64,000 bases of DNA from Carcharhinus longimanus (lineage: Eukaryota): the NCBI GenBank assembly GCA_030264375.1, contig JASCQW010000043.1:87388392-87452391 (forward strand). The letters run 5' to 3'. The notes under the pieces are model-generated. The model saw only the letters and a list, made by a program, of their open reading frames with translations. It ran no database searches and was not told the origin of the DNA. Of this stretch, positions 5,187-53,301 are shown piece after piece. Every line of letters begins with the position of its first letter. Position 1 is the stretch's first letter. The position numbers were made by a program, and so were the translations under genes.

Positions 5187-6199
5187 AGTGAAGCCAGTAA
5201 TGCATATCTCGGTGGCTTTCTGTGCCCCCTGTTCCCCATAGCATTGTGAAACATAACATAACCATGTATCTAGAAATGCTAATTAACTATCCTTGATTCC
5301 AATTTCCTTTGGTTTAAAACGCATTACCTTCAACATCACTGGGACTTGTGGTGACTTGGTCTCTAGGTTTGCAACAAGTACACTGCTNNNNNNNNNNNNN
5401 NNNNNNNNNNNNNNNNNNNNNNNNNNNNNNNNNNNNNNNNNNNNNNNNNNNNNNNNNNNNNNNNNNNNNNNNNNNNNNNNNNNNNNNNNNNNNNNNNNNN
5501 NNNNNNNNNNNNNNNNNNNNNNNNNNCCACAATGTGCCTAATATTTCAAGGGCCACTTAAATACTCAGGGGTAGATAATCAAGCCCTGGGGGATTTATCA
5601 GCCTTCGATCCCATCAATTTCCCCAATGCCATTTCTCTAGAAATACTGATTTCCTCAGTTCCTCTGCCTCACCTTAAACCCCCTAATCCTGAATATTTAT
5701 AATATTATTTGTGCTCTCCTTTGTAAAAACAACTCTAACTTGATCAGTGACCTTACATCACTGATTTGATTTATTATCACATGTATTAGCACGCAGTGAA
5801 AAGTATTGTTTCTTGCGCACTATACAGACAAAACATACCATTCAGAGAAGGAAACGAGTGAGTGCAGAATGTACTATTAGTTATAGTTGGGGTGTAGAGA
5901 AAGAACTTGATGCAAGATAGCTACTATTGTCTAAGTGTAAATCCCTTCCACCTTTTCTCAATAAAACAAGCTTCCCTTTGACCTCTTGCAGACTGTAGAA
6001 CAGATAACATGACACCCTTTATTTACCTCAAATTAAAGCTGTACTTCAACTAGCCACCTAAGCAATTTTTCAATATCAAAAAAGTCTCCATTTCAGTCAC
6101 CGACTTGAGTCTTCTCCATCTGAATCTAAATATTCCTCTTTGCTACTCCAAGCACTGATTCTATCTATTCTGCCTCATCTCTCCCAAAACCCCAAAAGC

Positions 6200-8949: not shown

Positions 8950-9157
8950 TTTTGAAGTGGTCAGTACTGACCTGGCTAGCATTTACTATTTCCAGTTTCC
9001 CTGAAGGTGATGGCAATAACAATTTTGCTTGGGCACAGTTTAAAGTCATTCACATTGATGCAGGTCCAAAATTGCACATGAGGCAGGTTAGGTAACGGAC
9101 AGCAGTTCTCTTTCCTTAAAGGGACTTCACTATAATTCTACTTCATGGCCATTTTCA
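8950..9157 (-). mobile_element. Degenerate SINE of the 30872/36378 family, running into a gap
   Basis: ctggctagcattta, cagtttaaagtcattcacattg and gcagttctctttccttaaagggac are collinear with the 36378-36540 copy. Confidence 0.6.
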
Positions 9158-9743
9158 NNNNNNNNNNNNNNNNNNNNNNNNNNNNNNNNNNNNNNNNNNN
9201 NNNNNNNNNNNNNNNNNNNNNNNNNNNNNNNNNNNNNNNNNNNNNNNNNNNNNNNNNGAGTATGAAAACGGAAGTCATTATGTTCAGATTAAAGCTGAAA
9301 TGTTAATAAAGTCAAAAAGCTATTTCATTAAAAAGATTTAGATGCCGATATCAATTAGATATCAATTTCTTTGATAGCAAGAATACAGTCAAAAGAAAAT
9401 AAGGTTTATGTTTGGAGAAGAAAACTAGAAATAAAACTAGAATCAAAATCCAAGCATAGTTGCAAAACTAAAAATACCTGTATGCCTTTTGTAGTGTCAC
9501 AATAAAATTTTTTAGCACATTTACTCTAACATCATAAAATGATGAATGGTTAGGTCAAAAATGAGAGAAACGGGATGTTTCAATGTACTGTATCCATGCA
9601 TTAAAAGACATAAAAAGCTGCTTTTTAAATGACCAAAACCGCTTCAAACTCAAAACCTGTTAATTAGATCTAATAGTGAATGACTGCCTTCTACTATCAC
9701 AAAGTTAACAGTTTGGAGAAGTGATTGGATTGATGTACAGTGA

Positions 9744-9983
<240 letters not shown>

Positions 9984-12900: not shown

Positions 12901-13959
12901 GAAGATTATGACAGAACAGAATGCTAGTACCATTTATTTATATTGTTTCCTTATTCTAATTTCTGCCTGACTGGTGTATATGACTGGCCAAATTTATCTA
13001 AATATAGAAAAAAATGTAAGTTTGAAGTAACTTAACTGCATGCTTGCTGCTGTCAATTTACAGGAGAGCAAAAAATGTTTAAACTCATTGAGAAGTAATC
13101 AAACTGGCTCCCAAGGAGGTGTAAGATAGCAGTGCGTGGCTAAACTGTATTGCTTCACATCATTTGTTTAACTCTGACTTTGCTTTTAGCTATTTCTTGC
13201 CTAAATTTTCTCAATCATGATGTTGCATGGTCTCGCGGTTCTAAATTCAAAACTTGCCAATGTGGGGATAATGTCAAGATGAAAATGGAAGTGAAGAATC
13301 GGCAATTTATCTTATTGAATGGGGAACTTTTAAGGGCTGAATAGCCTCCTATTTCTTGTATGTAGGGCAGCATATATATGGAATGTCTAATAGACATTTA
13401 AATCTTGGCCCAGGAAGTGGACAACAAACTATTATTATGCTGGGCATGAGTCAAGTTTCAATATCTTGATAGCAAAGTCATATATGTGGATTATGAAAGC
13501 ATCAGTTAGTATTGATTGGGCAAATAGCCCTTTGTTCCAAGTTTTCTTGTGTTCTTTCCTAGAATTTCAAATTTGCTGGTGCCTTTTTGTTCTTAAAGTT
13601 ATTACTTAGGCTTTCTAAACCTGGCATAGCAGTAAACCAACAACTGTTTTATCTGCTTCATTTGGGTCTCCTTTGCATTTAGTATCAGCCCAGCGCAGTG
13701 TTAATTTGCAGATCTGATCTTGCCATGTAAAAACTTGGTATGAAACACTATCCAGCCAAAATGCTCAACTGCATTCTACAATCTCTATCATTTTGCTTTG
13801 CTCCCTCCTGTTTGCCACTGAAGTAGTTTTGTATGAGTCAGCCATCATTATTGAATAAGGGAATTCATTAGAAAATGTTTGTTTTTTTTGGCAGTTTTGT
13901 ATTTCTGTAGCTTCTTTAATGTGTATAATCATCCCACGTGGCATATGGAAAAAGACAGC

Positions 13960-14560
13960 ACCAAAAATTATACGAAGTGACCAAAAACTTGGCCAGAGAT
14001 GGAATTTAAGGAGAGAATGAAGTGTGATGCTAGGCAGCTGAAAGCATAGTTGCCATTAGGGTGAAAAGGGAGAATGTCTGTCAGAAATTTGGACTAGTGG
14101 AGGTTGGAGATGGGAATATATGAAACCTTGATTGAAATGCACAATAAATTTGAGGTAATGAACAGGGAACAGATATAAATCGGCGAGAAGTATGAATGCA
14201 GTGGTGGGATTTATTTTTTCCATAGCATGCCGGCATAGTTTAGCATAAGCTGATCTTTACTGAAGGAGGCTTGGAGACTGATGGAAGGGAAGTCCATGGG
14301 GTGAGATGTATCATTGTTGAGCTGAAAGTAGACCGTTCTGTGATGGCGAAAATATTGGATCTGAGTTCAGCTTGAGGCTCCAACAAGTCTAAGTTGGAGA
14401 TGTATGGAGGGAAGGGTGATGTGGTGAAGTGGGAGGAATGGAGTTGGTGCTGAGGGAACAGTGTTTCAGCCAAGGGCTGGAAATGATGGCTTTGAACTTT
14501 TTACTGTTTAGATGGAGAAAATTGCAGCTCATCCAAGACCAGATGTCAGACGAGCAGTTT
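13960..14560 (-). mobile_element. Old L2-like LINE remnant
   Basis: Purine-rich decayed LINE-like sequence (ggaaatgatggctttgaac...ggagaaaattgcagctcatccaagaccagatgtcagacgagcag). No intact ORF. Confidence 0.45.
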
Positions 14561-15611
14561 GGCACAAATTAAAGGTCAGAAATTGCATTTAACTGATCCC
14601 TTGCACAACATTTAAAAAAAAAAGTAACTAGATTATGGATACCTGCTTTATCCAAGTTTTTTTCTGTTTTTAGATGCAACCTTTTCACGTAATCTGATTT
14701 ACAATTCCTTCTAGGCTTGCTTCACATTTTGTGGTACAAAATACAATGTGCTAAGGATTTAATATTTTTTCAAAGCTTAAAAGGCAGAGTACTGTAAACT
14801 TGCCCAAAGATGAGCAAAATGTTGGGCCAATGTATGGATTTGGAGTGAGGATCCTAATATATGAATATTCCAAACTTTAATTCCAAAGCTCCCTTTTAAG
14901 TATAATTCTTCCTGGTTTTTTAATTTTTATGTCTATTTGTATGTAGTAGTCACTAACAATGTGGGGGGGGAAACTGACCAAAAAATGATAGTGTTGTGTT
15001 TCATGCTATGCTGTGATGCGGTGGGGGGCAAAGCCCAGCTCCACTGAGATCAGAGTGGCAAGCACAGGCTAAAGATCACCCCTGTAATCACAACCACCAA
15101 AATGATAAGTAAAATATTGCTTGTCAGACCTTTATTCCAACCATTATTTCTTCAGTTGATAGTTCCTATGCAGGCTGTGCATAAGCCTGCCCCTTACCAA
15201 ATGAGTTCCAAACATTTAAAAGGCCTGTGCACAAACAAGCATTCTACATAAGTATACTGACAATCCAGAAATGTAAATTTGAAGATTCAAACTTTCCATA
15301 ACAGCTCATGGAAATAACCTGCTAAATTGCTAGTCTAAGTATTACTACCAGATATTTGTACATTTTTTTTAAAGGAAGGCATTTATTTCAGACATCAAAT
15401 TTTGTTTCCCATTTCCTGCAATGTTTGATTTATAGACTTATTGCTGCTGCATTGGGCAAATATTATGTGAAATTTTCTAATCAGTTTGTTACCACTCCTG
15501 TTGTGGGCTCTGACCTCAAGTGGATCAATTTTCCAATTTTAATGTTTTAAAATAGAGACTGATCAGTGGTACAAGCAGTTTCCCAGTCAGCCTTATGAAC
15601 AGAAGTGTAAA

Positions 15612-15805
15612 GATCAAGTTGCCATAGTACCAGATGACCGTAGGCAGCTCTCCCCTTTTTAAGGGGGAGAGTGGACTGGTGGTGATTTAACCTGAGGATC
15701 ACCACACCTCGGGTGAGAAGCACAGACTTTGTAAATGACCTCAGCCGGTTGGGGAACTGAACCCACGCTTTTGATTACTCTGCATCACTAACACCTATCC
15801 ATCTA
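15612..15805 (-). mobile_element. tRNA-derived SINE of a third family
   Basis: Minus strand has a B-box-like gcgtgggttcagttcccc followed by aaccggctgagg. The 3' part contains the inverted repeat ctctcccctt-ttt-aagggggagag. Confidence 0.6.
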
Positions 15806-17049
15806 AATGACACCTGCATCACCCAATAACATGTGCCCTGCATTGCATTTCATCACAACTTTTTGAATGTTTTTGTCAGCATCTGTCAATAGAGAGAACT
15901 TGACCTTTACTTGTGCAGGTGCAGATCTCTGACCAATTGACTGCTTTGTGATTTTTGTAGAAGGTCTACGTGCCATTTTGTTTCTCAAGATTATGGCCTC
16001 TCTATCCTTATCCTTAATCTTGTATGCAACCAAAATGCCCCTTGTTTTTTCATTCAAATTCCACATTGCTTGGGTGGTGTATTATTCTACTGCTTGTTTC
16101 CATTATTCAACATATTGGTAGTTTATTATTACAGACCTTAATTCTTAATATTGAGACAGGTTTATTGCGCCCCCCCCCACTGATTTGTTACAAGAATAAT
16201 TTTTGGTTCTTTTAGGTTCTGTTTTATGATCTATCATGCAATTAGGCTTATCAATACTTTGCTCTCTCTAATATTATTTCCTGCATCTCCAGAATTCTAT
16301 TTTCAAGCACTTGTTTACTTTTGCAGTCATAGATTTTTGAGTCACATTACTGCATCTACTACTAAATTTGGGTTCCGCTTCCTTCACTTGGAAGTGCAAT
16401 GTAGTTTCTGGCAACTATGCCTTTTTTACAATTACATTTGTTCTTCAGACTTTGTATATTTTTGACAGTTACAATACTATAATGACAACAGTGACTACAT
16501 TGTGAAGCATGTTCTATGCTTCACTTGCCTCCTCCTCTCCCCCTCTCCTCTCTCTCCCCTCCCCCTTGAGGGAACACTCAACTACTTCATCTTTGGGACT
16601 GAACTATGACCATTATATTGCTACCCTTCACTACATTGATTTTGATTCATATATAAAGGCACTCAAATCCCTGAGAGTGCCATATACTATTTTTAGAAGA
16701 GCTACTACCAAAATAATACTTCTCCCCTCATTATTTGAGTGGGCAAAGCAGCATTTGCAGCTTTATGTTCTTGTCTTCTGCCTACTTTTCAGCCTAGTTT
16801 TGTATTGTCGGCAACAGGCACATGGCCCTTTCATTGATGCGTTTTATAAATAGCTGAGACCCAAACTCCTGATCTTTGCCGCATCGGTCCATATTGTAAC
16901 CTGAAAATTACCTTTTATTCCTACTGTTTTCAAAACTCGTGGTCCCAGTCAGCACAGTGGCACAATGGCAAATTGGGGGTTATCTGATCAATTGTTTTCT
17001 CTCTACCTCACTGTTCTAGATGGAAGTATCTGCCTTTTAATCCAATGGA

Positions 17050-19500
17050 ACCAATCTAGAATCTCAAACTGCAGATCAAAGCCAATGCATGTACTACCTC
17101 TACAGCTATCTCCTTTTAAAACTAGATGTAGGATATCTGGAACAGATGACTTGGCTTTTAGTTCATTTTTCTTTTAAGATCATTGCTCTCATTAGATCCT
17201 TTTCCCTTACTATTTCCAGTATGTCTTCTGCCTACTTTGAGGATGGATACAAATATAACACGTCTGCCATTTCCTAATTCCCTATTATAATTTCTCTTCC
17301 CTCTGCTTGAGGGACCAGTTTGCTTTCAATCCTTTTTTTTTGATGCTTTGAAATGCTTCTGATCCGTTTTTATATTTTCTGCTTGTTTATTTATTGTTTT
17401 TCTCCCATTAACTTCTTGATCACTTGCTAATTCTAAAAAACTGTCCCAGTCATGTTTGCTATGTTTTGGTGACATTGCAAGCCATTTCCTTTCATATTCT
17501 TAACTAATACTACTTTTTTCCTTTTTAATTCCTCAAAAGTGAATATTTAAGAGTAATTTCTGGAAAGGTTGTCATTGCTTATAAGCATCACATCTTTTAA
17601 TCTTATTTCCTATTAAGGCACGAGGGAGAAGTTGCCATGTAATTAGCTTTTGTTTAAATTGAAGACCAATTTCTGATGTCGAGCTCAGTGATGGGAAATT
17701 CTTCATTATTGCTCTTCCCAGATAGCCCCTCTGAAAGATTACTACTCTAGATATCTGCTTCTAGACTGTCCTTTTTGAAGCCTCAAAACCCCCCAAAATG
17801 GGGGCCGACTTCTACACAGAATAGAAAAGCAAGTGAACCACTTCAGAATGAGTGATTTGTCATCTCTGCTTAAAGAGCATCTCTTAAACACAGCTCAGAT
17901 TATCCATTTGATTCCTGGTACCAGTAAGTGAAACATCCATTTGCGGGATGAGAAATTGAGGCTGATGTAAAATGACTGGAAAGTGGGGCAGGGTGGGAGA
18001 GTCTGTTTGTCCAAAACAAATGTTGTTTTTGAGGCTGGGATAGTAAGTTTGATTGATAGGTAAACCACAATTGTTAATTATAATATCCATCACATTGAAT
18101 AATAGATTTAAAACATTTTGTTCCCCAGTTGGTTCTTTTGTTCTAGAAAGCTCCAGATACATTTTATGAACTTGATCTCCAGGTTACTTCTGCTAGTTTT
18201 CTTCATCCAGTCTGTATGAAGATTAAAACCCCCACCAACCCCCTTTTATCTAACCCTCATTAATGGCACCTCTAATTTGCCAATTTTTGTATTCTATAAT
18301 TCTTGGTAAGGCCAATGTTTTCTGTTTTTTTTAGCTTTATCAAAAATATTTCTACAACCTGATTTTTGGCCCCTTCGAGGGGCTATATCCTTTCTCATTT
18401 TTAATCACCTTTTCCATTCTGATCTTTTCTGAAAGTGAAATACCCTGAAATATTTGGATCTTCATTTTGCAATCGTGTCCCTCCAAGATCAAACTTAATT
18501 AATCTGTGATCTATTTTATTAGAAATGTTTGCATTCTGTTTCAGACATGATTGTTACCTTTTATTGAAGCTTGTCTCTGCCTGAGACAATGCTTGATTTT
18601 AAAAAAAACTTGTTCCTCTGCTCTACAACCTTTTTTTAGTGTTAACCTTTCCTCCTCTTATAGTCTTGTCAGCCACCCAACTTATTTGATTTCACCTGCA
18701 CGCTGGTCATGCTCAAGTGAGTTCCATCCAATGGAACCGCAACCACTTTCCTTACTAGTGGTGCTGAGACCTCCGTGAATTGAAACTTCTGTCTCGCGTT
18801 CTGGTTTTTGACTAGACATTTTGTCCCTTCAGTCATTTGGCACATGGCTTTGATATTAACTTTGCGATTTTAAAAGAATTTGGACCCTAGTTTCACATTT
18901 GCTCAGCAGAATCTCATTCCTATTCTTATCTAGCCATTGGTTCTATATGAACCATGACCACTGGATCATTCTGTTCCTGTTGCAAATTCTTCACCCATGA
19001 GGAAATGTCCTTACCTCTGACACTGGACAAGGAGCACTGCCTTTGGGAGCTGCAGAAATCTGTACATTTCTTGCTTTACTACTAGTTCATTTATACAATG
19101 TGCTGTTGATCAGGCCAGTATTTGTTGCCCATCCTTAACATTACCATATGCCTTTTCACACTACTGAACCATGTTAATTTGCCCATCGTTCTTGGGGAGC
19201 CTTTGTTCTCACAGCTGTATCAAGTACTTCGTAGCTGCTGGACATGGGTAAATCACATGTTTGTCATATGCTGTATGATAATGAGGAAATCCATTCGTCT
19301 GTAACTCTTAATGGATTGCAATTCATGTATGCAATTCATATGTTCAGGACCTCATTACAAAGATTAAGATCAAAGCTGTTTTAACCTCAGAGGGTACTGA
19401 TGGCCATGAAGGTGGATATTGTTCCAGCTATTTGTGATTCCATGCAAGGGCAAAAGGCTGTGACATCGGAAGTCTCCTTACCTGGTTGACCTTGATTCAA
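17050..19500 (-). mobile_element. Highly decayed CR1-like LINE (ORF1/endonuclease region)
   Basis: Scattered CR1-like phrases (gatctggaacagatgacttgg, ttcatccagtctgtatgaagattaaaacccc, ggcacatggctttgatattaac). Many stops; boundaries approximate. Confidence 0.4.
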
Positions 19501-19899
19501 TTGTATTCTCCTGTTCCCTGACTACTTGTCAAATCTAAACTGCCATTAAGGGTATGACATTCAGGCGCACAAGCCTGACACAAGGTCTCAAGTGGTGGAT
19601 CAAATGGCTCCTGTTGAATCCTTTATACATCAAAGATGATGCCTGAGGTTGCATGGTCTACAATTAAAATCACCTGTGTACAGGAAACTGGTCATTCTAG
19701 TCTGACCCATTTTCACCTGCTTTCGAGCACTCTAATCTTTTTTTAATGGTATGTGGGTGAGGTGTTGTTTAGTATCTGTTCATTCCTGAGGTTATGCTGC
19801 CTCTCTAGGAAATATCACTGCTTTGCCAAGAGATATTGCCATAGTAATTGTTGCTAATCGGCTGAGTTGGGGAATAGTTGACCTCTGATCATTCAGTTC

Positions 19900-22800
19900 C
19901 TTTTGTAGTTGGTGAATTTACATCTGTGCCTTCAGCTGTGAAGGAGTAGCTTCTCCAGTTGTACGTATATTTCTTGTTGCAATATGTCTGGTCGTTCATT
20001 TGCATGTTGTATGATCAAGGTAACAGCTTCACACAGGGGTCCCAAATTGCCAAATAGGCTGACTGAGTGGATTGAACGTTTGCACTCTGGCAATAACTTG
20101 GCAGCTTTATCAAAGTTTTGGTTTTCTTATCATTCCAGTTTGATTATTGTCACCTAAGTCTGTGATTACTTCTGGCTTCAGTGTCTTGGCTAGTGGAAGA
20201 GCAGTTTTGGTGCAGCATGACAGTTGTTGAACTGGACTGCTTTCCATGTCCTCGCTTCTCCACAAAGGTTGCTTTGTATAGCTCTGTGCTGAATCTACTT
20301 GACTTTTTAAAATCTCTTCAGCTTTCTTCACCACACTCTCAGCCTCTGCTTTTGGCTGTGGCTAGATAGTGTAGCGATATGTGCTGAATTCTTCACTCCT
20401 GAACTGAGGGCCATTGTTACTGTCCACAATATCAGGAATACCATTGTGACCGAAGTGTGCTTGTAGGCATTCTACAATCTCTCTGGTCACTAATGTTGGC
20501 TTATTTAATACCCAGTGGTCTGGGTAGCAGTCAATGGTGATGAAATAGTTATAGAGAAACTGTAAAGGTTTATTCCAAGCCAAGTCTTTAATCTGCCTGG
20601 GATGTCATGAGTCAGGAGTGGCTCATTGATGTTCACTACAAGTGCTGCATTGACTAATATGGATCTCTATTTCCTTGTTCCTGTTTGACCAATGGAGCAC
20701 TTTTCTCATGCCTTCCCAAGACTAGACTTGATTCCTTGATAGCTCTTGAACATCTCTTTCCTCATCTCCTTTGGGATGATGATTCAAGTTCCTTTTGTGC
20801 AAGATGCCATCTTGGGCAGTCACTTGTGTTCAGGGCACATTCTTACAGCGCTCGATATGTCCTTGATGGTTTCTGGCTGAACTTTAGAGTTGCATCTCTT
20901 GCAAAATTTTCTTGATCCGAGCAAAATACTTGTCAGATTCAGTGTCTCTGCGTTGATGCCTCAAGCATGCTGTGTTGCTTTTTATTGAATCTAGAAGATT
21001 TCACACTCCCAAAGGTGTACCATTTCCTTCAAAGGAAGTGCCATGCAATGTACACTTGTTTCCCCTGCTTTAATTTCAAATGATATCTTCTCCCCAAATG
21101 AAGTAACATCCTTTTTCAGATGTTATGGAGCAGATAGATACAAAAAAAAGATGCTTCGAAGGGACATAGTCCAATTTTTTTACCATTTTGTTTCCCAAAC
21201 AATTCTGATGCAAATGTTCACAGGCAAAGACAATATCAGGTGTACAGTTGTTCAGTACGAGTTGACACTCTGGATGCAAATTCAACTGGTTATTCTTGCT
21301 GCATAAGGGTTGCTCCAAGTCCCCTCATTGGCATCTCACTTCAGAGTGACTCTGCTACCTCAGCACTGGCGTCGTATCGTTAGTTTGAGAATGAAAGCTG
21401 CTTGTTCTATTCCTCAAAACGATTGAACATCTTGTGAGCTTGTATGGAGGTTCATACTCCTTGACCAGTGGACAAAAAGCTTTCTAGGTAGTTCACAGAT
21501 GCAACGAATTGTTGCACTGCCTTCAAGTCTGGTTGCTGCATCTCTGCTACGACACTCATCAGGATCAGGCCACACTCGCTATCATTACGTGACCTGTTGC
21601 AGTTTCTTCTACTTCAGGTTAATCAGGTGAGCTCTTTCCAGCAGTCGCACTAGATTCTGATCATGGCCTGCAATACTTTCAATTGTTTCTCCGCACCCAT
21701 AGTCTAGCAGATTACCCATGGTCACCTCCACTCCTGGAGAACATTGACTATTTCCATGTTGTTGGTGCAGTTTTCTGGAGCAGTTTAAAAAAAAAAATCA
21801 GCGCCTAATCTGGAAACTGCTGCTTTCATCCAACTATTTTTGCCAGTGTCCATCCTTCATATCTAGGTTTTGCACTGAGGCAGGTTAGGCCTTCCAAGCA
21901 CAAAACAATAAGTAAAGGAAGAATTACTTGCAGAGGGGCCATCTGAAAGATCAGGGTCAGAGTACTGGACCTTTTTCTGGTAAGTTATAGTATGTGCCTT
22001 CAATGACACAAGATCAGGAGATCTCGTCAAAGCTTTATAGAGGCCCTTTGGATCTGTGCATACATTCAGCTTTCCTGGTTGTTTCACTTTATCATGCTGC
22101 TAATCCAATCTGTAGGAGTTGTCACTTTCCTATTCCTCCATCTTGTTTACCTTGTCTTTCAGGCAGAACTAAGGCAGCTGAAACTTCAAGATGCTGACTT
22201 GGTTTCATGCTGTCATCTATTTCAAGGTGATAGTCACCAGGAAGACATCCAAGATTAATGAAAACATCTTAATTTTTTAAGATTTGTTAAGCAGTCAATT
22301 GCTTTGTTGTACAGAGTAGTGTAAAGCTCTGGTACAATGGGGGGTTTTCGGTCTGGATTTGTTTCAGCTTAGTTGAGTGGATTTGGCTTAGTGTTTGATT
22401 TGCAACTGCTTATCTTCATTCTTCCCACTGAGCTCTTCTGTTTGCCCTCTTGGGGGTGAGCAGTGTTCCATCATACAGCCTTAACTTTACCTTGGGCTTC
22501 ATTTTGGGTCACTGTTTTGATGTTGTACATTCCAGTAGTCAGAAACCATTTCTGAGACTTGGGAATGCCAATGTGTTCAATTTGTTGTGTTGGTCATCTG
22601 CCATTTTTCCAGCAATCATATTATTTCACTTTCCACAGTGATTAAGCTTCCTGCAGTTAGCACTTGACTATCCCCTCACTGGATGTGTTTTTTAACATGG
22701 TATTCTGTACAATAATGGCATTCAGTACTCTGATCTTAATCTTTCAGATGGCCCCTCTACAAGTAATTCTTCCTTTTTACTTATTGTTTTGTGCTTGGAA

Positions 22801-40400: not shown

Positions 40401-40742
<342 letters not shown>

Positions 40743-41387
40743 TAAGAGCAAATGCTTCATGGAATTTGCCAAGAGGCAGAATTAAGTAAAACTGACTGCT
40801 AAATAACACTTGTTCAAAATTGACTGTGACCTGGATGTTAGTTGCTACAGTAATGCAAATACAGGTGTATCAAATGTTGAAATTGAAAAATGGATAAAGA
40901 TGTAGTCTTGATACCCTGCTAACTTATGTTGAAGTGCACTAATTTTATGGTGGCTTACAGCCATTTTGTTGTTACTGGCAGTAGTTAAATGTGGCCCAAT
41001 TTTGTGTTCTAATGCTATTGCCTCTGATTTTAATGCCTTATTTCCTACTAGTTCTGAGTAGAGAATATAATCTCAACTCTTAACTATCATTCTTTTTGTT
41101 TAGTCTTCAAGTATCACCCAGGAAAAGACACCAGAGAAGTATGCAACTTGATGCTATCTATTTGACACTACTCATGGTCTTTACCTAGCAAGCCCAGTGT
41201 ACCTTCAGCTTCTGCCTGTAATTCACAACAGGAAATGTTTTTTACTCGATTGATCCTCCTGTATTACTAATTTTCTTTTGTAAAATCTTGGTTGCTGTTG
41301 AGACATTGTCTAACTTCAGTCTGAAGTGTTTTTGATTTATAGTATTCTTAAGTTAACCAGTGGGTGTATGGTTAATTCCACTTCTTC

Positions 41388-41623
41388 TGATGTGGAGATG
41401 CTGGTGTTGGATTGGGATAAACTCAGTAAAAAGTCTTACAACACCAGGTTAAAGTCCAACAGGTTTATTTGGTAACAAATGCCACTAGCATTTGGGGCGC
41501 TGCTCCTTCATCAGGTGGAGGCCCACTCACCTGATGAAGGAGCAGCGCTCTGAAAGCTGATGGCGTTTGTTAACAAATAAACCTGTTGGACTTTAATCTG
41601 GTGTTGTAAGACTTCTGACTGTG
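41388..41623. mobile_element. Palindromic Penelope-derived terminal-repeat element with two opposed hammerhead-like cores
   Basis: Arms 41421-41517 and 41528-41623 are reverse complements. CTGATGA-a-ggagc-agc-gctct-GAAA-gct at 41531-41558 is mirrored at 41486-41514. Confidence 0.8.
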
Positions 41624-41825
41624 TCAACCACCTGTGCACAGTGGCAGTCATATGTATCATTTACTAAATCTACTGCATTAACTTGCCAAACATCCTACAA
41701 CAGCACCTTCCAAATACCTGACCTCTATCACCTGGAAGGACAAAGGCAATAGATGCAGGGGAAATCCGTTACGACCTCATTCCTCTCCCAGCCAAAAACC
41801 ATTGCAAATTGGAACTATTTCACGA
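41624..41825 (+). mobile_element. Fragment of the 59289-61857 LINE family 3' region
   Basis: gcacagtggcag...cagcaccttccaaatacctgacctctatcacctggaaggacaaaggcaatagatgca corresponds to 61505-61640. Confidence 0.7.
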
Positions 41826-44310
41826 GTCCTGTTTGATTGGCAAATCATTAAGGAGGTGTTTGGAAATGGAGTGGGGGTGGGACAAATCAGTGTGCCAAGG
41901 GCAGTCTCCTGCTTTAAGTACACCAATCCTTCAGATTTCTTTTAAATTTGAATATTGTTAGCCTTATGGTTACTGCTTTTTAAGAATTATTCGTTCTTAT
42001 TTAAGTTCTTTCTAGTTCTTGATTTTTGCCCCCTTGTGGCCATTTGTAGAGGAACCATGTTTCTGAAGAAAAATCTCAGTTTACATTTACTTTGCATGCT
42101 TCTTCAGTTGAGGAAAATTATGGGAACAAGATTGCTGGAACACTTAAGTGATTAGTAGACCATAACATTGGACACCTGTTGATTAGACCTTGACTTAATT
42201 CCAGATCCAATGAGCCTTTGAAGTCTTGACACTTTTTAGAGTTGTTTCCAATTTTTGTGTTCTCTCCAAAAGATTACTGGTGTATGGATTCACATGCAGT
42301 AGCTACCCTCTGCTGCCTTTTTTTAATGGATACTCTCTATACATAATGCTGGATTAATTGGCTCTGCAAGTGGTCCATGATGTCATTGTATTTTTGTCTC
42401 ATTGTACTGGCAGTAATACAAACAGATTATGACGTTTCAGTGGGGGGGAAAAAAGCAACATTTGTATAATCTCTCAAATTCTGTATGCAACTTTCCCAAC
42501 AGCTTTCCCTACCTGCGATATGGCAATCCTTCACTGACACTATTTCTGGAAGTTTAAAATCTATGTGATGTTTGCTGGGGATTGTTAACTATTTATCAGC
42601 ATTGGAGTAAGGAGGGAAAAACCTATCTTCCAGCCCTCAGTTTTTACATAATCTAAATAACAGTTCAGACCACAAGTCCGAGGGTGCAAAAAAACAATTA
42701 TAGGTTTAGAATGTGATAAAACCACATAGAAGTAAATGCTCACGCTTGCATAATTGATTGCTGCTGTGTGAGGTGCCTGACTGACTAACTGGATTGCAAT
42801 TTAAATGAAAAAGGAGATGCTTGTACACATTCTAATTTTGTGAAGACCAAAATGGAAAGAACTTCTCATTCCTGCGCCCTGTGCTTATTTTCTTGTATTA
42901 TCTTTGTGATAATCACAAATGTCAGTGCAATGAGATTTGCCATTGATGGAAACATGGTTCCTATCTTGGATCAAAACTCACTCTTGACGACTTAACCGAA
43001 AAACCATTCTGGCATTAAACAGTTGTTGGTATGAGAAAATGCAGAGGGATAATAGTCCTGATCTTGCTTTTATCTCATTGCCTTGGAGTTGTGACGTAAT
43101 ACGAAATAGCAGTCTTAGGTTTTATATGCCACTTGTGCCATTTATACTTCCACAAGACCCTTTCCGTTTGCCTTTGTCGGAATCTGAGTTATTTTGCACT
43201 TTTTCCTTGGAAGGCCATCTGGGTGCCAGACGAGGCACCCTACGCCAGTGGAGGTTTGCACCCAGTCTGTCATTTATTTAAGGGGAGATTTGAATTAAAA
43301 TACAAGCACAAATAGATTGCAAATCCAAATTGTTGGAATTTGTCTCTTTCAGGCAGGACTGTTATCATTAGGTTTAATCATCACAGAGGAATGCAAAAAA
43401 AATGAACAAAAAATAGCTTAGTTTTATCCACTGTGCCCCTCCTTTTGTATATTTTGCCTGATGATAAACTTTTTACCATCTATTTTAACTGCTCCAGGAG
43501 CTTAATAATTACAAACAAAACTTCATAGTTGTTAAAATGAACTTTCTTTTTAAGGTAAGAAAATAAAACTCTTGGATGTAATCTGTCACTGCACCCTGCC
43601 TTACAATGACCTGCATGTAGCCCAAGTTAAATCGTATATAGGCTTCACCTCTGACCAAAAGCCACAAACCTGGAAACAAAAATCCTTTCCTGAACACCAG
43701 TTCACAATTTAAACACAAACTTCACAGACAGTCATTCAATGAACAATCTGCTCCAAGGTATTTGCAGCAAAAAAAGACACCATCTCCAATGCAGAACTAC
43801 TGAACCATGTTCCAGAATCGTAGAAATTCAAAGCACTGAAGGAAGCTATTTAACCTATCATGTCTGCAGCAGCTGACAAAAAGCCATCCAGACTTTTTTA
43901 TCTAGTCCTTGGCCTGTACTCTTCAGGTTGTAGGATGTTTGGCAAGTTAATGCAGTGGATTTAGCAAATTATATATTTGGCTGCTTCAACCACCTGTGCA
44001 CAGTGGCAGTGTATATTTAAGGCCCTGGATGGGCTGTTGGCTAAGTGGACTGCTTTGACCTGGATGGTGCTGAAGTATTTTGGGAGCATCAACCAGGCAA
44101 GTGGAGAGTAAACACTCCTGATTTGTGTTTAGGTAACAACATTTCAAATGCATAACCAACTGCTTTTTAAATGTTAGAAGGGTTTCTGCCTCTATTGACA
44201 TTTCAGACCGTGAGCTCCAGATCTACTCCACCCCTCAATTCCTCACCATTCTTCTTATCCAAAATCTGTATTCCCTGGTTATGGATCCCTAAACCAAGTG
44301 TAAAAGAGCC

Positions 44311-44577
44311 AGAGAATACGTACAGTGCCAAGAGAGGCCATTCGACCCATCTGATCTGCACAGGCCCTCCCCTCTGCCCTATCCATGTAACCCTGCATAT
44401 TTACCATGGCTAATCTACCTAACCTAAACATCTTTGCACAGGGAGGAAACTGGAGCACCCAGAGGAAACTCGGACACTAGGAGAACATGCAAACTCCACT
44501 GACAATCGCCCAAGGCCAGAATTGAACCTGGGTTCCTGACGCTGAGGTAGCAGTGCCAAGCGCTCATCATGCAGCCC
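44311..44577 (-). mobile_element. HE1/V-SINE nested in CR1
   Basis: gggaggaaactggagcacccagaggaaac...ggagaacatgcaaactccac...attgaacctggg is the reverse complement of the 2251 element. Confidence 0.85.
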
Positions 44578-45650
44578 TATCTGTTCTATTAGATATCTCC
44601 TCAGTTTCCTCTTTCAAATTAAACAACTGTTACCAATCCAATATTTCTTCATAATTTAACATTTTCAGTCCAGGCCACATCCTCATGAATTTTCTTTTAC
44701 CTTCTCTCATGCAATCACTTCTTTGCTATCGTGCAGTGACCAGAAATGTGGTCTTAGCAGTGTTTTAAACAGTTCCAACATAAACTTCCTCCTCTTATGT
44801 TCACCTCAGCTAATGAAGGCAATAATCCCAAATGCCCTTTTGACTACCTTGTCTATCTGCATAGCTACCTTCAGGAGTGTGGGCATGCATCCTGGGGCCT
44901 CTCTATACCTCTACACTTCTGAGTAGCCAACCATTTATTGTGCTGTTTGACTTCCTATATGCATTACCTCACACTTCTCTGAATTGAGCTCCATTTGCTG
45001 CATTCTCCCCCATCTAACAAGTTAATTGATATCTTCCCCACAGTCTCCAGCATTTTTTTCATTTCCATCATTTGTATCATTTACAAAATTCTTAATTATT
45101 TACTCTACATCAAATTCATTGATATATATACCCCAAAAAGTAAGAGTGTTGGTACTGACCCTGTGGAATCCCACTGGAAACTGCCTTCTGTCGCAAAAAC
45201 ATCCATCAACCATAATACTTTGCTTCCTCCCTCAGAGCCAATTTTGGATCCAACATGTCACTTTGCTTTGAATTCCATCTGTTTTTAATTTAGTGACCAG
45301 CCTGCCATGTGGAACTTGTCAGTCGCCTTGTTAAATCAATAAATATTGCATCAAATTTTTGATCTTTAGAAAATTCACTCATGTCAGTCAGATGTGACCA
45401 CCTGTTAATAAATCTGTGCTGACTGCCCTTGATAATCCCGGGTCTTTCCAATGAAGATTTGTCCTGCTCCTCAGAATTTTTTTCAGTAGTTTTCAGCTTC
45501 TGAGGTTCGGCTGATTGGCCAGAAATAATTCATTCCATCCCTTTCTCCCTTTTTAAACACCCAAGCCTGTGTCCAGAGAGGATTGCAAAATGATGGCCAG
45601 TGTCTCTGCTATTTCTTCTCTTGCTTCACTGAACAGTTTAGGATGTATTT

Positions 45651-45970
45651 CATAGAATCGTAGCCTCCTTCTGCACTGTAGGTATTCTATTTGGCCCATT
45701 GAGTCTGCACCGACCCACCTTTTTATCTTATCCAGGCTCTATCCCCATAACCCCATATATTTATTCCACTAATCCCCCTAACCTACACATCTTTGGACAG
45801 TAATGAGCAATTTAGCTTGGCCAACTAACTTGCACAGCTTTGGACTATGGAAGGAAACCAGAGCATCTGGAGGAAACCCAAGCAGGCACTGGAAGAATAT
45901 GCTAACACAGGCAGCCGAGGCCTGAATTGAACCCTGGCGTGGTGAGGCAGCAGTGCTAACCACTGTACCT
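45651..45970 (-). mobile_element. HE1/V-SINE nested in CR1, with a 29-bp internal inversion
   Basis: ttggcccattgagtctgcaccgac...gcaatttagcttggcca...gtgaggcagcagtgctaaccactg. The flanking CR1 sequence rejoins as ggatgtatttcat|ccaaacctggggacttatc. Confidence 0.85.
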
Positions 45971-47149
45971 CCAAACCTGGGGACTTATCGACTTTCAAAT
46001 GTTAAAACCCTTAATGCTTCATTTTTGACCATGTCAATTTCATTTAATATTTCACATTCCTCCTCCCTAATTGCAATTTCTGAATTGTCCCCCTCTCCTG
46101 TGAAAACATACACAAATGCAAAGTATTTCTTGGAAACCATATCTGTTGATTTGCCTCCACTCATAAGTTACCCTTACGGCGCTTTTAGTTAACCTTTTGT
46201 TCTTTATGTATTTGTCAAAAAATGATATCTTTTTTCTTCATTTTTACCTGCCAGTATTTGTTTCATGCCTTCTCCTTGTTTTCGTAGTTTCTCTTTTAAT
46301 TTCGCCCTTACTCTTTTTATACTGTCATCTTTCAGCCATGTCTCTGTAATAATTAAAATATCAGATTCCCATGGAAATGATGCCCTACAATGAGAATATT
46401 GGAATTTGTAATGTCTGTTGTTTGACTTTCAAGACCAACGAAGAATGAGGGCTTGCAAATCAGTGCACTTGGCTGGAGCACAGATTGGATTCTTGAACAT
46501 TTTTTTCAAAAATATTGAATTGAATTGCTGAACAGTATGAAGTCTATTATAGTTGTTATTTGAGGTGCAGGCTGAAATGACCATTTAAGTCAGATGTTGT
46601 GGAGTGCTTTTCATTTTGCTCAGCTCAAACTCCCAGCGACTAAACAAATCGGAGTTAGGAACATTTATTTAAAAATTCATTCAGTCCATTTGCTGTATTT
46701 TAACGTTGTATAAAGTGTTGGCAGAGTGTGAACCATTTAACCCTAGCACAAAGGTAATTGCTTGAATGGAAGCATTATTGCTTCCCATGCAAGAGCAGAG
46801 AATATGCAAACCTCTTAAATTTGTCCTGAGAAAATAATTGCTTTTATCATGTCAAAACATTTTAAAAGCACCTCATGCAATCAATTAGTTTTGGACTGTG
46901 GTAATTGTTACGTAGCAAAATGTGCCGCCAATTCTGAGATCAGTTCCGCCCAAGTAACTATGATTTATTCTCGATTGCGGAGGATGTTGACCTGAGCACT
47001 TCTCCTAGAAAGTGCCATAGAATCTTTTAATATTTATCTTGAGGCTGGAAGGTCAGCATTGAGAGGTTGTCCTGCTGCAGCTCACTTGTGAATATTTTGA
47101 GCAGAATGATTTGTTTTCTAGAAAACCTATTATATTTCTGCCTCCCTTC

Positions 47150-47290
47150 AGTCCTGAACAGCAGTCATTATTAGACTTGAAATATTCACTTGGTTTCTTG
47201 CTCCACATACGCTGCCAGACCTGCTCAATTTCCCTGTACTTTTTTTTAATTCAAATCTCCAACATCTGCAGTATTTTGCTTTTATTTTGA
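47150..47290 (+). mobile_element. Old Penelope-type terminal repeat with an eroded hammerhead-like core
   Basis: ctgaacagc-agtc-attatta-gact-tgaaa followed by gctgccagacctgct...catctgcagtattttgcttt. A related remnant lies at about 29640-29715. Confidence 0.5.
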
Positions 47291-48314
47291 CACTTAGTTT
47301 GCCTGTTTGAACCCACCACTAAAGGGCTGTTGCTGACCAGGCTTATTGGTTATTTAGTAATAGGGTGAAATAGAATAATACATTTTTTGAATATTATGCA
47401 CTAGTATAAAAGTGTGGCCTCGTGGAAAAAGTAGGTATACTCCTTTTCTACAAGCACATGTAACTCTGAGCCAGAAACAAGATGTAGCATGCACGTAATA
47501 TTATAACCACTCGCATTTATGAAATATCTTTCATACAAAGAACGGTCCAAAACTTTGCAGATAGGTATGAAGTAAATTGATCCTAAGCCAAAAGAGACGT
47601 GATCAGAGTGATTTTGAATGCAAGGTAGATAGATGGTTAGTTGGGAATTTCAGTGAAACATGACATTATTCATGGACTTAATAGAGTAGATGCTGAGAAG
47701 ATTGTTGCTGTGGTTGGGAAGTCTAGAAGTAGAGGGTCACTGTCTCAGGATCATGAATCAATTATTTTGGACTGAGTTGAGGAGAAATTATTTCCCTCAA
47801 GACTGGGAGTCAAGGAATTCTCGTCCCCAGAGGGCTGTGCATTTTCAATTGTTGAGTATGTTCCTGACTGATCTTGAAAGATTTTTGGACAAGGCAGTCT
47901 CACATTAGGCTGAGAACATACCGAACACGGACCAAGCGGCCAATTTCGTTTACGACTTGTGTTGCTTTTTCTGGAGATGTGGACTGAGAGTGATGCATAA
48001 ATGATTAAAATCAGAAGTGCTGTGTTTGAGGGGAAATGGGATTTGGCAAGGCCTTTGAGGGACTGAAGATTTCATTTTTGACCTAAAGAACAAAAACAGC
48101 CCGGGAAACAGGCCCTTTGGCCCAACGAGCCCGCGCTGCCATCTCAACACCACCAGTCCCCCTCTCCACCCATGACCCTTGTCTAATGTTTTATGGCCAT
48201 CCACATTGAGGGAANNNNNNNNNNNNNNNNNNNNNNNNNNNNNNNNNNNNNNNNNNNNNNNNNNNNNNNNNNNNNNNNNNNNNNNNNNNNNNNNNNNNNN
48301 NNNNNNNNNNNNNN

Positions 48315-48530
48315 CTGATTGGAGTAGGTGTAGCTCCTCCTCCAAGGCTTGATCTAATTTGCATCTTAGCCAAAAGGCTGAGATGCCGCTTTAAAAAACT
48401 GCTTCAAATGAAGCTGAAATGTAATCTAATGACTTCAACCAAGTGCAGCATGTCCATACTACACTCAATCTTAGCCAAATGGCTGAAAAGCGATAGCCTG
48501 TAGAACAGATACTACACTTGATCTTAGCCA
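48315..48530 (-). pseudogene. Cluster of U2 snRNA 5' fragments (U2-headed or U2-targeting element remnant)
   Basis: Against the vertebrate U2 sequence: 48502-48530 = nt 18-46 (29/29), 48456-48494 = nt 1-39 (34/39), 48363-48383 = nt 7-27 (20/21). No Sm site or 3' half, so this is not a functional U2 gene. Confidence 0.85.
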
Positions 48531-49892
48531 GATCAGGCCAATAGTTTGACCAAAAACGATATGTTCAAGACTGATTTTGGTGTATCTGAGCCTGAACTTT
48601 CAGACTTAGCTTAGTTTCTTCACCTTTTAGTTTCCTGACAAGTTTGTTTTTAAAAATTAGAGCTTTATTTCTTGCTTTATCTGATTTCTCATGAGTATCT
48701 TGAGTAATGTTTTTTAAAAAAACTTGTAGCTGATTCTCTACATATTCTTCTAACTTGATGCCTTCAAAGGTGTGCTTTTGTATTTGCTATCTATCATGAA
48801 CTTGGTGTCTGTGAAAGGTGATTTTCTAAAGGTGACAGCTGGTAGGAAGATTGTGAGCAATGACTTTGGTAGGGCCAATGCATCAGTGTTCATTTTCAAA
48901 TACATTTGTGCAGCAATGTGTAAGGCTGAATTGTGTAAAAGTATGAGTGATTGTGATCCAGCACTTTTGCAAATACATATCAGATAATCGGAGATTCCAC
49001 GTATTTATGATTATGCTTCGCTTCCTGCTGGTCCTGTTATTTTGCAGATTCAGCTATAAAATAGAGTTGTAGCTCTGTTTGCACTTGGAGGCTATTTTCC
49101 TTGACAACCCAGTGGGAATCAAAAATGTCTGGAATTGCAAACCAGAGGTTACAAGTCTGGTTCAACTAACCACCTCGTCAGTCTGCATTCATTGTGGTCT
49201 TGAATTTGTATGTGTACTTAACCTCATCCCTTTGGTAGCAGTACTATTGATGTTTGTACTGTTGCCCCTAGAATGTCACTACATCTAGTTCAACCATGTC
49301 CTTTGCCTCCCTAAGATTTGATTTTTTTTATCTCTAGCTTTGGTCTACCTCTATTTGTGTATTTCAAAAAATCTTTTATAGCTTCTAATATCTTTGTATA
49401 TACTTTTTATTCCTTTTTTCAGATGCCTGTCCTTTATTCATCTTGATTCCGTATTAAGGGTTTGTCAGTGCCATCTTTTTCCTTCCTCCCCATATTCATT
49501 TTACTTTACTAGTCATCCAACAACCTACCACTTCAGATGCCCATGTCTGCCCTTTCTCCCCTCATGGCAATGTCCACTCTACCTGAACTAAACTTTATTG
49601 TTCCATTCCTGCTTTCTGACTTTTGATTTCAATCCACCTGCGTTCTTTCCAATTGACTGAGATAACAACCCTCCAGTTCCGTTTTTACTCCTGATTGTTC
49701 GCCTTTTCTAGAACAATTGCAAAACCAGGTGTTAAGATCACTATTTCCAAATGCTTCCCCACCTGAAATATCCTCCCTGACACACTCTTCATTCCCCAGA
49801 GCAAGATCCAGTGCTGCTTCTGTTGTGGAATTGGAAACACTAATCATTAAGTTTCTTGTACATGTCTCAGAATAGCACTATGTCCTTTTAGC

Positions 49893-50076
49893 ATCATAAA
49901 AACCCTACAGTGCAGAAAGAGACCCTTCAGCCCATCAATTCTGCAGCGACCACAATGCCACCCAGACCCTACCCCTATCTCCCTACATATTATCCACTAA
50001 TCTCTCTAACCTAAGCATCTTGGGACACTAAGGGGCAACTTTAGCATGGCCAATCAATGTAACCCACACGTCTTTT
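49893..50076 (-). mobile_element. 5'-truncated HE1/V-SINE
   Basis: ccctacagtgcagaaagagaccc...gggacactaaggggcaactttagcatggccaatc...aacccacacgtcttt. Confidence 0.8.
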
Positions 50077-52554
50077 AATTTGCTGCTGTATTTTTGGTTA
50101 ATTGAAGTCTCCACCCAATGTCTCTTAGCAATCTGCCTGCAGAAACTGCTCCTTAAGTTATACTTTCAGAAGTATAATATCTTCTCTGTTGATTCTAACC
50201 ATATAGTTTGACCCTTTTGGCTATGCAAATACTAAATAGCTTTTACCACCCTTTTTATTTTTAATGTCCTGAATATCTTCACAAGGAATGAGGTTTATAA
50301 TCTGCCTGTCTTTGAACCAGGACTGCTGTCACCATATCGTCGTACCACATCATGACTTGTGTCTGCAGCTCACCAATCTTATTTGTCTAAACGCACACAT
50401 GATCCAGTTTGCATTGGCCCAGTTAATCCTTTCTATTTGTAGATTGGACTATTGGATCATATTGATGTGAACCAGTAGATTTTGGAAACACAACAGCAAT
50501 AACTCCGGATGCTGAAAATCAAACACAAGGGGAAAAATTCAAGTCAGTAGTTGAGGGGGAAGAGAGGAACATTTCTTGGTTGATCAAGATGTAAGTGATT
50601 TGTGAGCTCCTTATGTTGATGTAATGGAAGACAGGTTTTTAAAACTGGTTTCTCTGGATCTAAGAATAGTAAATGGAGCAGTCTTCGCCATTTCAAAATT
50701 GTTTTGAAGTCCCTAAGTTTTTACACAAAGCAAGGATGTATAATTTCAGGTTCCCTGCAAGCACCCAAAGCAAGCATTTGCAAGAGATGTAGTTGTAAGT
50801 GAAGGAATTTCCTGAAGGTTTTGCTCTAAGCTATGCTGGATGACTTGTATCATTTAAGACAGTTGTACTGTAATACTACAGATTCCGACTCCAATTTGGC
50901 ATGGATTGCCTTGCTGTAACCTGAGGCAAACATACTTGTTTTCAAGCTGAGAGCTTTGATTAATCTGTGGTTCCGAAAGTCACTGTTGTCTTTGTCTTTT
51001 AACACCTTCAGTGTGACTCACCACTGATCTTAACTAGAAAATCCAGTGAAGAATAAGTCTTCCGTTAAATGGTGCATAAAATAGTTAGAGGGACACTGGT
51101 CGTGAAGTCTGTTCTTTACTTGGCAATTTCACTTCTAACACAATTGAGCAAATTATTCTTTGGACCTGATGCCTTGAAGCTTGTTAAAATAGGAGAAATG
51201 CATTTTGGGGTTGAAGTGCAAATAACCATGTTCCTTGGAGTAAATATTTAGATCAAACATCTTTTCAGAAAGTAGCTTTGTGCATGTGTAGAGTTTCATA
51301 CCTGAAGGGTAAAATTTTAGTGTAGGTCTTGAGCACTTCACCTAAACTAAAAATAAAATTTTCTCCCACTTGGTTTTAATATGCCTTGTCGACAATATTG
51401 CATTCAAGTCCTGGAGTCCAAACAAGTTGTCTTAATTTAGTAGAGCAAATCATGACTAGATTTGCACGAGTTATTGGAGTTTGCTGGAAGTGCAAACTGA
51501 AAAGTTTGATTCGGAAACTGCTTCAGACANNNNNNNTCAGACAAATTGGGACCCCCCCCCCATTCTCCAGCGTGCATAAGTCTCCAACTGTGGCATGACT
51601 ATCTAGATGTGGTATAAGAATATTTAATATTACTTGCAACATCAGCAATTTACTGACTGGTGCTATGCTTAGGGATTTCAAGTTTGTAGCCACTGATAGT
51701 AATAAATTATCTGTAATCAGTAATTTAGTTAAACACTGTACAAATACAAAATGTGAAATTATTGGCTAGTCCCCATTTGAAGAGTGCTGACTATGACTAT
51801 GCTAATCTACATCAATCTAGGTTTTAAACTTTGATCTTGACACTTTAGATCTCCATGTTGGTGAACTAAATTTGTTCTTACTGGTTTGCCAGCTGGCCTG
51901 TGTAAGTCTTGATCGGCTAAATATTGTTGCATTAGTGATAAATCCCATTTGTATATGTTCCACTCCATATCAGCTTGGAGCAATAACTAGATTTACTTGT
52001 CACTTATTCACTTGAGCTAAACCTAATCAAAGAACTAACTAAAAAGGAGGCTTTTTGTAACACTGAATGATATCACTGGGCATACAAAAGTGCCAATTTC
52101 GTAATATATCATGGTTTCTCCTTTTTCTCTTCTCTCCTATTTTCACATTTTGCTCCCAACCCTATTTTGTTGAGCACAATGATGAGCCTTATTTGAAGGT
52201 GGGTGTTGGGAAACTTTTTGAAAAGAATCTGTAATATCTTCAGTTTTTAATATTGATTCAACAATGCAAAGCACCAAAATGTTTTGATTACCATATGTAT
52301 TTAAGTTGAGATTCTAGCTGGGATTCTCTGACCTTTGTCTGCAGCTGGGATTCTTTGGTCCTGCTACTGTGAATGGAGATTTGACTTGAGTGCCAATATC
52401 TGTGTTTTGCTGGCAGCAGAGCATGAGACCAGAGAATTCTGGCCCCCTGCCTTCTGCAACGAATGTGGAACTTTTTGGGGGTGGTGGGTGTGGGTGCCAG
52501 GGAGAGGGGTGGCTTTGATTTATGCACATCTGAATTGCAAAATATTTCTTGCAG

Positions 52555-52593
52555 GTTGGACAATCTTCTAAATATGGCTTACGGTGTGAAGAG
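52555..52593 (+). CDS. ELAVL2: ELAVL2 39-nt hinge cassette exon (Hel-N1 vs Hel-N2 type), absent from the ORF track
   Basis: atttcttgcag|G TTG GAC AAT CTT CTA AAT ATG GCT TAC GGT GTG AAG AG|gtaatt. Encodes (R)LDNLLNMAYGVK(R), phase 2-2 and frame-preserving. Matches the known alternatively spliced 13-aa hinge segment of neuronal ELAVs. Confidence 0.95.
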
Positions 52594-52893
52594 GTAATTG
52601 TCTATTTTCTAGTCGTGCTGTTTGTTAAATTGAGATGAATTTTTCCTGTCTTTTCTATATTTAAAAATTGTAATCAAGTCTTGAGAGTAAATCCATTTTG
52701 GTTAAACAGGTTAAATTATTCAAAGCTAAGGTCAGAATGCTATTTCGTAAACTTGCTTTTCTCAATTCCATTGTGTGAAAATCAGATGATTTACCAGTTT
52801 GGAATACAACTTGTTTAAATGAATGCTTTTCATTCTGTGCAAATTTCCTTGTGAATTCAATCTAAATTTTATTGATCTTGTGTCCCAATGTAA

Positions 52894-53301
<408 letters not shown>

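Follow-up and report, generated by a model that had tools for sequence, protein, structure and literature searches.

A U2-headed, SINEU-like retroposon family in Carcharhinus longimanus and its likely Keno-like Tx1 partner

The U2 snRNA fragments on the minus strand of the window, the whole 64,000-nucleotide stretch analyzed here (C43:87,388,392-87,452,391 of the 2.68-Gb genome), belong to a single, dead copy of a retroposon of ~320 bp that has a U2 head and an A-tail. This retroposon represents a real SINEU-like family, which may already be in Repbase or Dfam. That its motor is a Keno-like Tx1 LINE is very likely, and the mechanism as a whole, in which that LINE moves the SINE and source copies lying inside U2 genes are transcribed, is probable. 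The U2 pieces of the window were aligned with U2 gene L002 of the same genome.

Anatomy of the window copy and of its family

Read along the minus strand, the window copy is headed by an extra U2 piece (48502-48539; U2 nt 11-46), a second head placed ahead of the element. Its match is exact for nt 18-46 (48530-48502) and, past a 2-nt insertion, reaches nt 11 at 48539 (score, 60). An 8-nt flank (48495-48502, its first base shared with U2 nt 46) then equals positions -8 to -1 of the tandem-array type of U2 gene and leads into the SINE head, U2 1-40 (48455-48494), which includes the branch-point recognition region (U2 nt 33-38). Over U2 1-39 (48494-48456), 34 of 39 head positions are identical to L002 (score, 53). 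Body part 1 (48387-48454) begins with a decayed inverted copy of U2 26-40 (about 48451-48437), predicted to fold back on the head, and is followed by an internal second U2 piece, U2 4-27 (48363-48386), that is fixed in the SINE consensus and matches L002 at 22 of 24 positions (score, 40, for an alignment running on to 48351). The sequenced part closes with an octamer word (48357-48364; element nt 131-138) and, at 48315-48356, the beginning of the first hairpin module, one of a look-alike pair in the 3' half. Positions 48494-48315 match the first 180 nt of the SINE consensus at 170 positions. The element then enters an assembly gap of 100 N (48215-48314), where, judging from full-length sister copies, its last ~140 nt and A-tail are predicted to lie. 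This gap is bridged by no contig listed, the loose ends stemming from sister copies.

The sequence-only reading of this DNA had proposed four U2 pieces (nt 18-46, nt 1-39, nt 7-27 fused to an octamer, and a weak fourth start) as well as the gap. The first three pieces, the octamer, and the gap are all present, the piece scores of 60, 53, and 40 comparing with a best score of 25 among 2480 other 50-nt tiles of the window. The fourth start (47916-47907) fails, its 9/10 match (score, 15) being equaled or exceeded by 232 of the 2480 background tiles. The PSE proposed along with it is at chance level and sits in a segment, 47880-48090, whose sole candidate in the genome is itself. Both lie outside the element in single-copy intron DNA (47880-48084), with no match to 47880-48085 in any other locus retrieved. 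A CpG-rich stretch reported there does hold 5 CpG in 81 bp, as opposed to 7.5 per kb in the window, but it is tiny and single copy. An unrelated high-copy repeat (48085-48214, minus strand), presumably a CR1/HE1-type tail, separates this DNA from the gap, lies outside the element, and has very high depth in all four runs. A weak U2 14-30 look-alike occurs at 47594-47577 (minus strand), ~720 bp away from where the element meets the gap; as a candidate fifth U2 piece it was rejected, its score of 24 ranking in the top 3 of the 2480 tiles without being clear of the background.

The element lies antisense within an ELAV-like gene (40401-53301, plus strand), between RRM-coding frames at 40401-40745 and 52894-53301; its C terminus resembles that of ELAVL2. 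Contigs of the three other runs, ~97 to 98% identical in the upstream flank, pass from that flank into the first U2 piece, indicating that the insertion is shared with those runs. No empty orthologous site was seen in the three runs, all of which enter the element from the upstream flank. The window copy shows no sign of function.

Copies of the element are dispersed through the genome, confirming the suggestion that the fragments form a nonautonomous unit headed by the U2 5' end. A genome search with 48315-48600 returned 2476 first-look candidates, 40 of which were scored and proved 86 to 95% identical (the window itself excepted), and another using one copy's 3' half returned 2284. One 18-mer of the body has 1351 exact matches genome-wide (control, 0) and is exact in 11 of 20 copies picked by their tails, which yields a lower estimate of ~2500 copies for the young subfamily. 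The consensus of 49 copies is ~320 nt long (mean identity, 92.7%). It runs from U2 1-40 through a 68-nt body segment, U2 4-27, a pair of look-alike hairpin modules, one short hairpin, and a low-complexity stretch to the A-tail, at which there is a polyadenylation-like word. Its head is identical to L002 at 40 of 40 positions. An older subfamily (L319-L343; 1371 candidates) is represented by 25 copies at 88.9% identity to their own consensus; it lacks the octamer and has several different head-body junctions.

A position-ordered sample, taken as the first 100 of the 1351 18-mer matches (98 loci on C1, C8, and C27), gives the following distribution of 5' ends: 24 start at U2 nt 1 to 3, 42 at nt 4 to 10, 20 at nt 11 to 20, and 14 later, such that 66 of 100 start by nt 10. 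Second U2 heads occur in 4 of the 100. Target-site duplications flank 12 of the 52 copies that have both ends and no second head, compared with 0.6% of cross-paired flanks. In an Rfam search of the unit the sole match was U2, in 4 loci, and a classical Pol III SINE with an internal promoter and a tRNA, 7SL, or 5S head was rejected on that result. Runs of four and six T's occur inside the unit.

The sequence-only reading went further and suggested that the unit may carry an snRNA promoter, made up of octamer and PSE, along with a new U2 start that could restore an interrupted U2 gene. The octamer is indeed part of the young consensus, and real U2 loci have an octamer at -248 (L004) and -270 (L017). 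But the octamer of the element lies inside the transcribed unit, is missing from the older subfamily, and shows no sign of promoter function, 14 such words occurring in the window; moreover, the PSE-like word and the fourth start are chance-level, single-copy flank. The unit ends at its A-tail ~320 nt from its start, and where U2 is present after the tail, it resumes at nt 39, not nt 1. With neither a PSE-like word nor a new U2 start in the unit, nothing indicates that it restores U2 genes that it interrupts, and such a role is extremely improbable.

A Keno-like Tx1 LINE and the U2 target site

The association of the family with a Tx1 LINE rests on a common target and on neighborhood. A pattern that joins an A-run to U2 from nt 40 onward was found at six loci (control, 0), in which U2 actually resumes at nt 39: three are Tx1 3' ends, two are SINE tails, and one is unassigned. 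The same U2 nt 39 flank is the 3' target of Keno (PMC6136364 and PMC4640811, in the parts accessible to us), and the U2 38/39 site is also used by Utopia (PMC4640811, likewise in part). Tx1 3' junctions before U2 nt 39 occur in L071, L073, L090, and L304 and are absent at the 3' ends viewed in seven other loci. Among sampled SINE copies, the 3' flank is U2 39-48 in 1 of 53, the other 52 matching at no more than 6 of 10 positions; the target preference shared with the LINE is therefore weak.

Domain matches assign an APE-type endonuclease and a reverse transcriptase (RT) to the partner LINE. PF13966 and PF23057/8 score above the Pfam cutoff, and PF03372 and PF00078 score below it, on broken pieces. 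The most complete view comes from L123, a broken 5.1-kb Tx1 copy with ZCCHC3-type ORF1 domains, endonuclease, and RT, which has a SINE on each side; L301 (the same as L071) carries zf-RVT. Only two of ten matches to the endonuclease bear names, those of Mobula and Cetorhinus. Like the SINE, the LINE acquires snRNA heads: U2 ending at nt 35 is fused to the Tx1 5' end at 7 loci, and other Tx1 5' ends among 30 loci, judged by eye, have U2 to nt 47 or U1/U3 pieces. Copies L284, L288, and L295 have both U1 and U3 pieces in front.

The two elements also lie close together more often than expected. Six SINE copies fall within 5 of 20 Tx1 loci, which were chosen by RT similarity and span 157.6 kb, versus an expectation of 0.3 to 1.2 that assumes 5,000 to 20,000 SINE copies. 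Among the position-ordered loci, 1 of 98 has a Tx1 3' end directly before the SINE, and one more has a short Tx1 piece. A link to Keno-like elements and to the U2 38/39 site, which had been suspected from the window alone, is thereby borne out by U2-site junctions and by the neighborhood of SINE and Tx1.

The bodies of the two elements share no significant sequence. Compared with seven Tx1 5' ends and three Tx1 3' ends, the SINE body yielded no convincing match (P = 0.03 to 0.5; a lower P value for L266 is the product of a run of N), and the resemblance of ~8 letters ahead of the SINE A-tail to the Tx1 end is not significant. The SINE is therefore not a UTR of that LINE, and it is from target and neighborhood, rather than from a shared tail or UTR, that the partner is inferred. 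The possibility that the unit is simply the 5' UTR of a known Keno element was likewise answered in the negative against the Tx1 family found in this genome. Two candidates for shared sequence were discarded: the SINE body as a Tx1 UTR, its match not being significant, and the tail of L072 as the tail of the partner LINE, which is single copy.

A related alternative is that the unit is no SINE at all and instead an internally deleted derivative or untranslated end of another LINE, either a different Keno or Utopia. Its A-tail with a polyadenylation-like word, the ~8 Tx1-like letters before that tail, and the sharing of the U2 site by Utopia (PMC4640811, in the part accessible) would all fit. 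Such an origin is nevertheless very unlikely: beyond the unconvincing matches to Tx1 ends, 29 new copies picked by their tails led in 25 cases to the SINE 5' part (some truncated), in 4 cases into a gap, and in no case to a LINE.

Several Tx1 loci have further features of their own. L301 and L304 continue from the Tx1 3' end through U2 39-186 and a spacer to the next U2 start, as apparent 3' transductions from a U2 array, and in L301 a bare A-run lies at the cut site of the second U2. The Tx1 5' ends of L278 and L281, which are on different contigs, share ~150 bp of non-U2 upstream sequence, possibly a 5' transduction or a target.

U2-gene upstream DNA and added heads

In most copies with a full head, the upstream DNA is unrelated between copies, indicating that the usual RNA starts at U2 +1. 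The upstream flanks of 17 perfect-head copies have no long shared similarity beyond L145, in which 19 nt match the -19 to -1 flank of L001, a U2 gene (score, 17, versus no more than 3.5 in the other 67 of 68 heads). A pattern search for this flank found only L145, L001, and one dead U2 gene. L141 is a dead U2 gene with an L001-type upstream region, broken after nt 14.

Longer extensions derive from a second type of U2 gene. The 110 to 190 bp immediately ahead of U2 +1 in SINE L133 recur in two Tx1 copies, where this DNA runs on upstream into a U2 3' end. Nine loci contain this 220-bp spacer: four consist of a U2 3' end, the spacer, and the next U2 start (L303 by eye), two have the spacer and a full SINE (L305 and L309), and three are fragments. 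In all, L305, L309, L133, and L314 have about 110 to 190 bp of tandem-array spacer joined at U2 +1 and unrelated flanks beyond it; their spacers start at differing positions, and the copies end at A-tails, except for L314, which is cut short earlier. Duplications of 7 to 8 bp, short and seen by eye after the fact, surround spacer plus SINE in L309 and L133. L314 came from a pattern search with five matches and one control match, and its match to L133 spans 145 bp. The 8-nt match to positions -8 to -1 of the array type that lies between the two heads of the window copy is short and was spotted post hoc; across 70 full heads, runs of array flank measure 15 nt in L305, 8 nt in the window copy, 4 nt in L133, and no more than 3 nt in the other 67. 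Such extensions are rare: all five copies with a long one were found by selective searches or by chance, and none was recognized among the 100 position-ordered copies.

The spacer-bearing copies look like 5' transductions whose source copies lay in a tandem array of U2 genes. Because U2-gene upstream DNA is joined to these copies at +1, it is likely that source copies were located in U2 genes and drew on the promoter there. The link to the promoter is thus opposite to that first proposed: rather than carrying a promoter within it, the SINE has U2-gene upstream DNA standing ahead of its head. The assembly yielded no intact U2 gene or array with an intact source copy in it. The array type appears there only as dispersed pieces, and the 40 kb at the end of contig C43 hold no assembled U2 array, only spacer beside a 4.9-kb gap (L302 enters this gap).

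Added heads bear on the same question. In 22 double-head junctions (20 in SINEs and 2 in Tx1 copies), the end of the added U2 piece lies between nt 40 and about 58, for the most part at differing positions and usually with short shared letters; one pattern search for such junctions could detect only ends in the range nt 45 to about 64. The two routes that fit such heads, entry into a U2 gene with duplication from nt 39 onward and subsequent transcription, or template switching to U2 RNA, are close to evenly balanced, the former being marginally the likelier. U3 5' pieces stand ahead of the U2 head in L035, L039, L155, and L257, and U1 pieces in L037 and L058, amounting to 1 of 100 position-ordered copies and 5 of 73 others.

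Template switching can be extended to a general alternative, in which the SINE and its Tx1 motor are the same, the extra heads and spacers are acquired during reverse transcription by a switch from SINE RNA to free snRNA or to array read-through RNA within the shared U2 head, and the sources lie elsewhere under a host or other promoter. The scattered double-head junctions with their short shared letters and the U1/U3 pieces on six copies are consistent with it, as is the lack of a detectable in-array master, and template switching is the favored explanation for 5' additions to SINEU-2 in the portions of PMC4494074 at our disposal. But this alternative leaves the promoter unexplained. Furthermore, the U2-body junction is fixed within a subfamily and differs between subfamilies, as expected if masters form by entry into U2 genes, and the added U2 pieces extend no more than 20 nt past the DNA cut site, at which SINE copies do land. 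On balance, template switching is unlikely to be the general explanation.

Proposed cycle, RNA structure, and relation to known elements

The preferred reading, transcription from source copies inside U2 genes, suggests the following cycle. The Tx1 endonuclease would place a SINE copy into a U2 gene at nt 38/39, and the upstream promoter of that gene would then produce RNA from U2 +1 to the A-tail of the element. Read-through from the previous unit of an array would yield 5' transductions. The Tx1 proteins would insert the SINE RNA mostly at random sites, where the promoterless copy presumably decays. As copies enter U2 genes time and again, the head is likely renewed and in some cases doubled.

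The head may be kept harmless by the structure of the RNA. Folding z scores are -6.3 for the young consensus and -5.8 for the old subfamily, with only -2.4 for one natural copy, and nt 1-75 alone reach -7.0 (young) and -5.7 (old). The start of the body is an inverted copy of U2 26-40, with 14 of 15 positions matching the reverse complement of the head in the older consensus, and the predicted fold-back after the head pairs with the branch-point recognition region. Differences between the old and young subfamilies affect 26 of 81 unpaired sites and 18 of 137 paired sites (P = 0.0014; with the old structure, P = 0.025), although 12 of the 18 differences at paired sites in the young structure break the pair. 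With its branch-point region hidden by the predicted fold-back, the RNA would be kept from behaving like a defective U2, so the masking may have a protective role.

A broader version of the model is tentative. It describes a promoterless retroposon that cycles through snRNA-type genes, with Tx1 dropping copies 30 to 60 nt behind the start of U2 (sometimes U1 or U3), the host promoter transcribing them, and a selected fold-back hiding the branch-point arm from the spliceosome. Under this version, the family and crocodilian SINEU would have separate origins, and the transcription of all SINEU elements would be accounted for by the same route.

The nearest known elements, SINEU-1, -2, and -3, were described from crocodilians together with Tx1-Mar (Kojima 2015; PMC4494074) and, according to the sections available of that paper and of PMC4758252, PMC5786205, and PMC5381603, were not found outside that group. 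The shark SINE resembles them, as they are described, in being a noncoding, high-copy unit of less than 500 bp whose head derives from U2, with several U2 pieces, snRNA pieces added time and again at the 5' end, and a poly(A) tail. As in the accessible account of SINEU, duplications are present in only some copies, there is no LINE-derived tail, and the partner is a Keno-related Tx1 with snRNA heads. Differences are the vertebrate class, the insertion preference (weakly the U2 38/39 site, with a Mariner, Mariner-N4_AMi, described for SINEU), the presence on shark copies of U2-gene upstream DNA, absent from the available sections of PMC4494074, and the fold-back over the head.

Comparisons with other systems, drawn from partial texts, locate the family more narrowly. 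Keno, a U2-specific LINE of the Tx1 clade, resembles the partner LINE in having an APE-type endonuclease and an RT, and at L071, L073, L090, and L304 the 3' junctions of the partner lie before U2 nt 39, whereas the SINE encodes no protein and is no UTR of the partner LINE, and most copies of both shark elements lie outside U2 genes. Utopia shares the U2 site but is autonomous and has a restriction-like endonuclease (PMC4640811). R2, which is cotranscribed with rRNA (PMC4494074), offers a parallel for the borrowed transcription of a target gene. Tailless U2 retropseudogenes and U snRNA-LINE chimeras also join 3'-truncated U2 to other sequence (PMC4494074), but here the U2-body junction and the body are common to more than 1000 copies, which argues for a transposing unit and not the sum of independent chimeras.

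In the literature searched, with subscription papers, Repbase Reports, and Dfam outside its scope, no snRNA-headed SINE is reported from cartilaginous fish. The family would be evidence that SINEs with snRNA heads, along with a Keno-like LINE, emerged in a second class of vertebrates. The transcription of SINEU is called an open question in the text available of PMC4494074, snRNA genes having no internal promoter, and the DNA from directly upstream of two U2 gene types found on shark copies points to a specific, testable answer, source copies in U2 genes. There are also practical consequences: thousands of U2 heads can be misannotated as U2 genes, with two full copies passing the Rfam cutoff, and an insertion common to related species is a usable phylogenetic marker.

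The searches also revealed the organization of U2-related loci in this genome. U5 and U2 genes are arranged in tandem at L002:470-920 and L004:1121-2636, the latter consisting of two units. On the small contigs represented by L016, L017, and L018, a composite is repeated that leads from a piece resembling a tRNA (by eye) through a spacer into U2 nt 1 to about 160, joined to the 3' flank. Many near-full-length U2 copies of the L001 variant (L005-L009, L011-L014, and L019) end about 35 to 40 nt beyond the mature 3' end, some with clear duplications, and form a family of precursor-U2 retrocopies.
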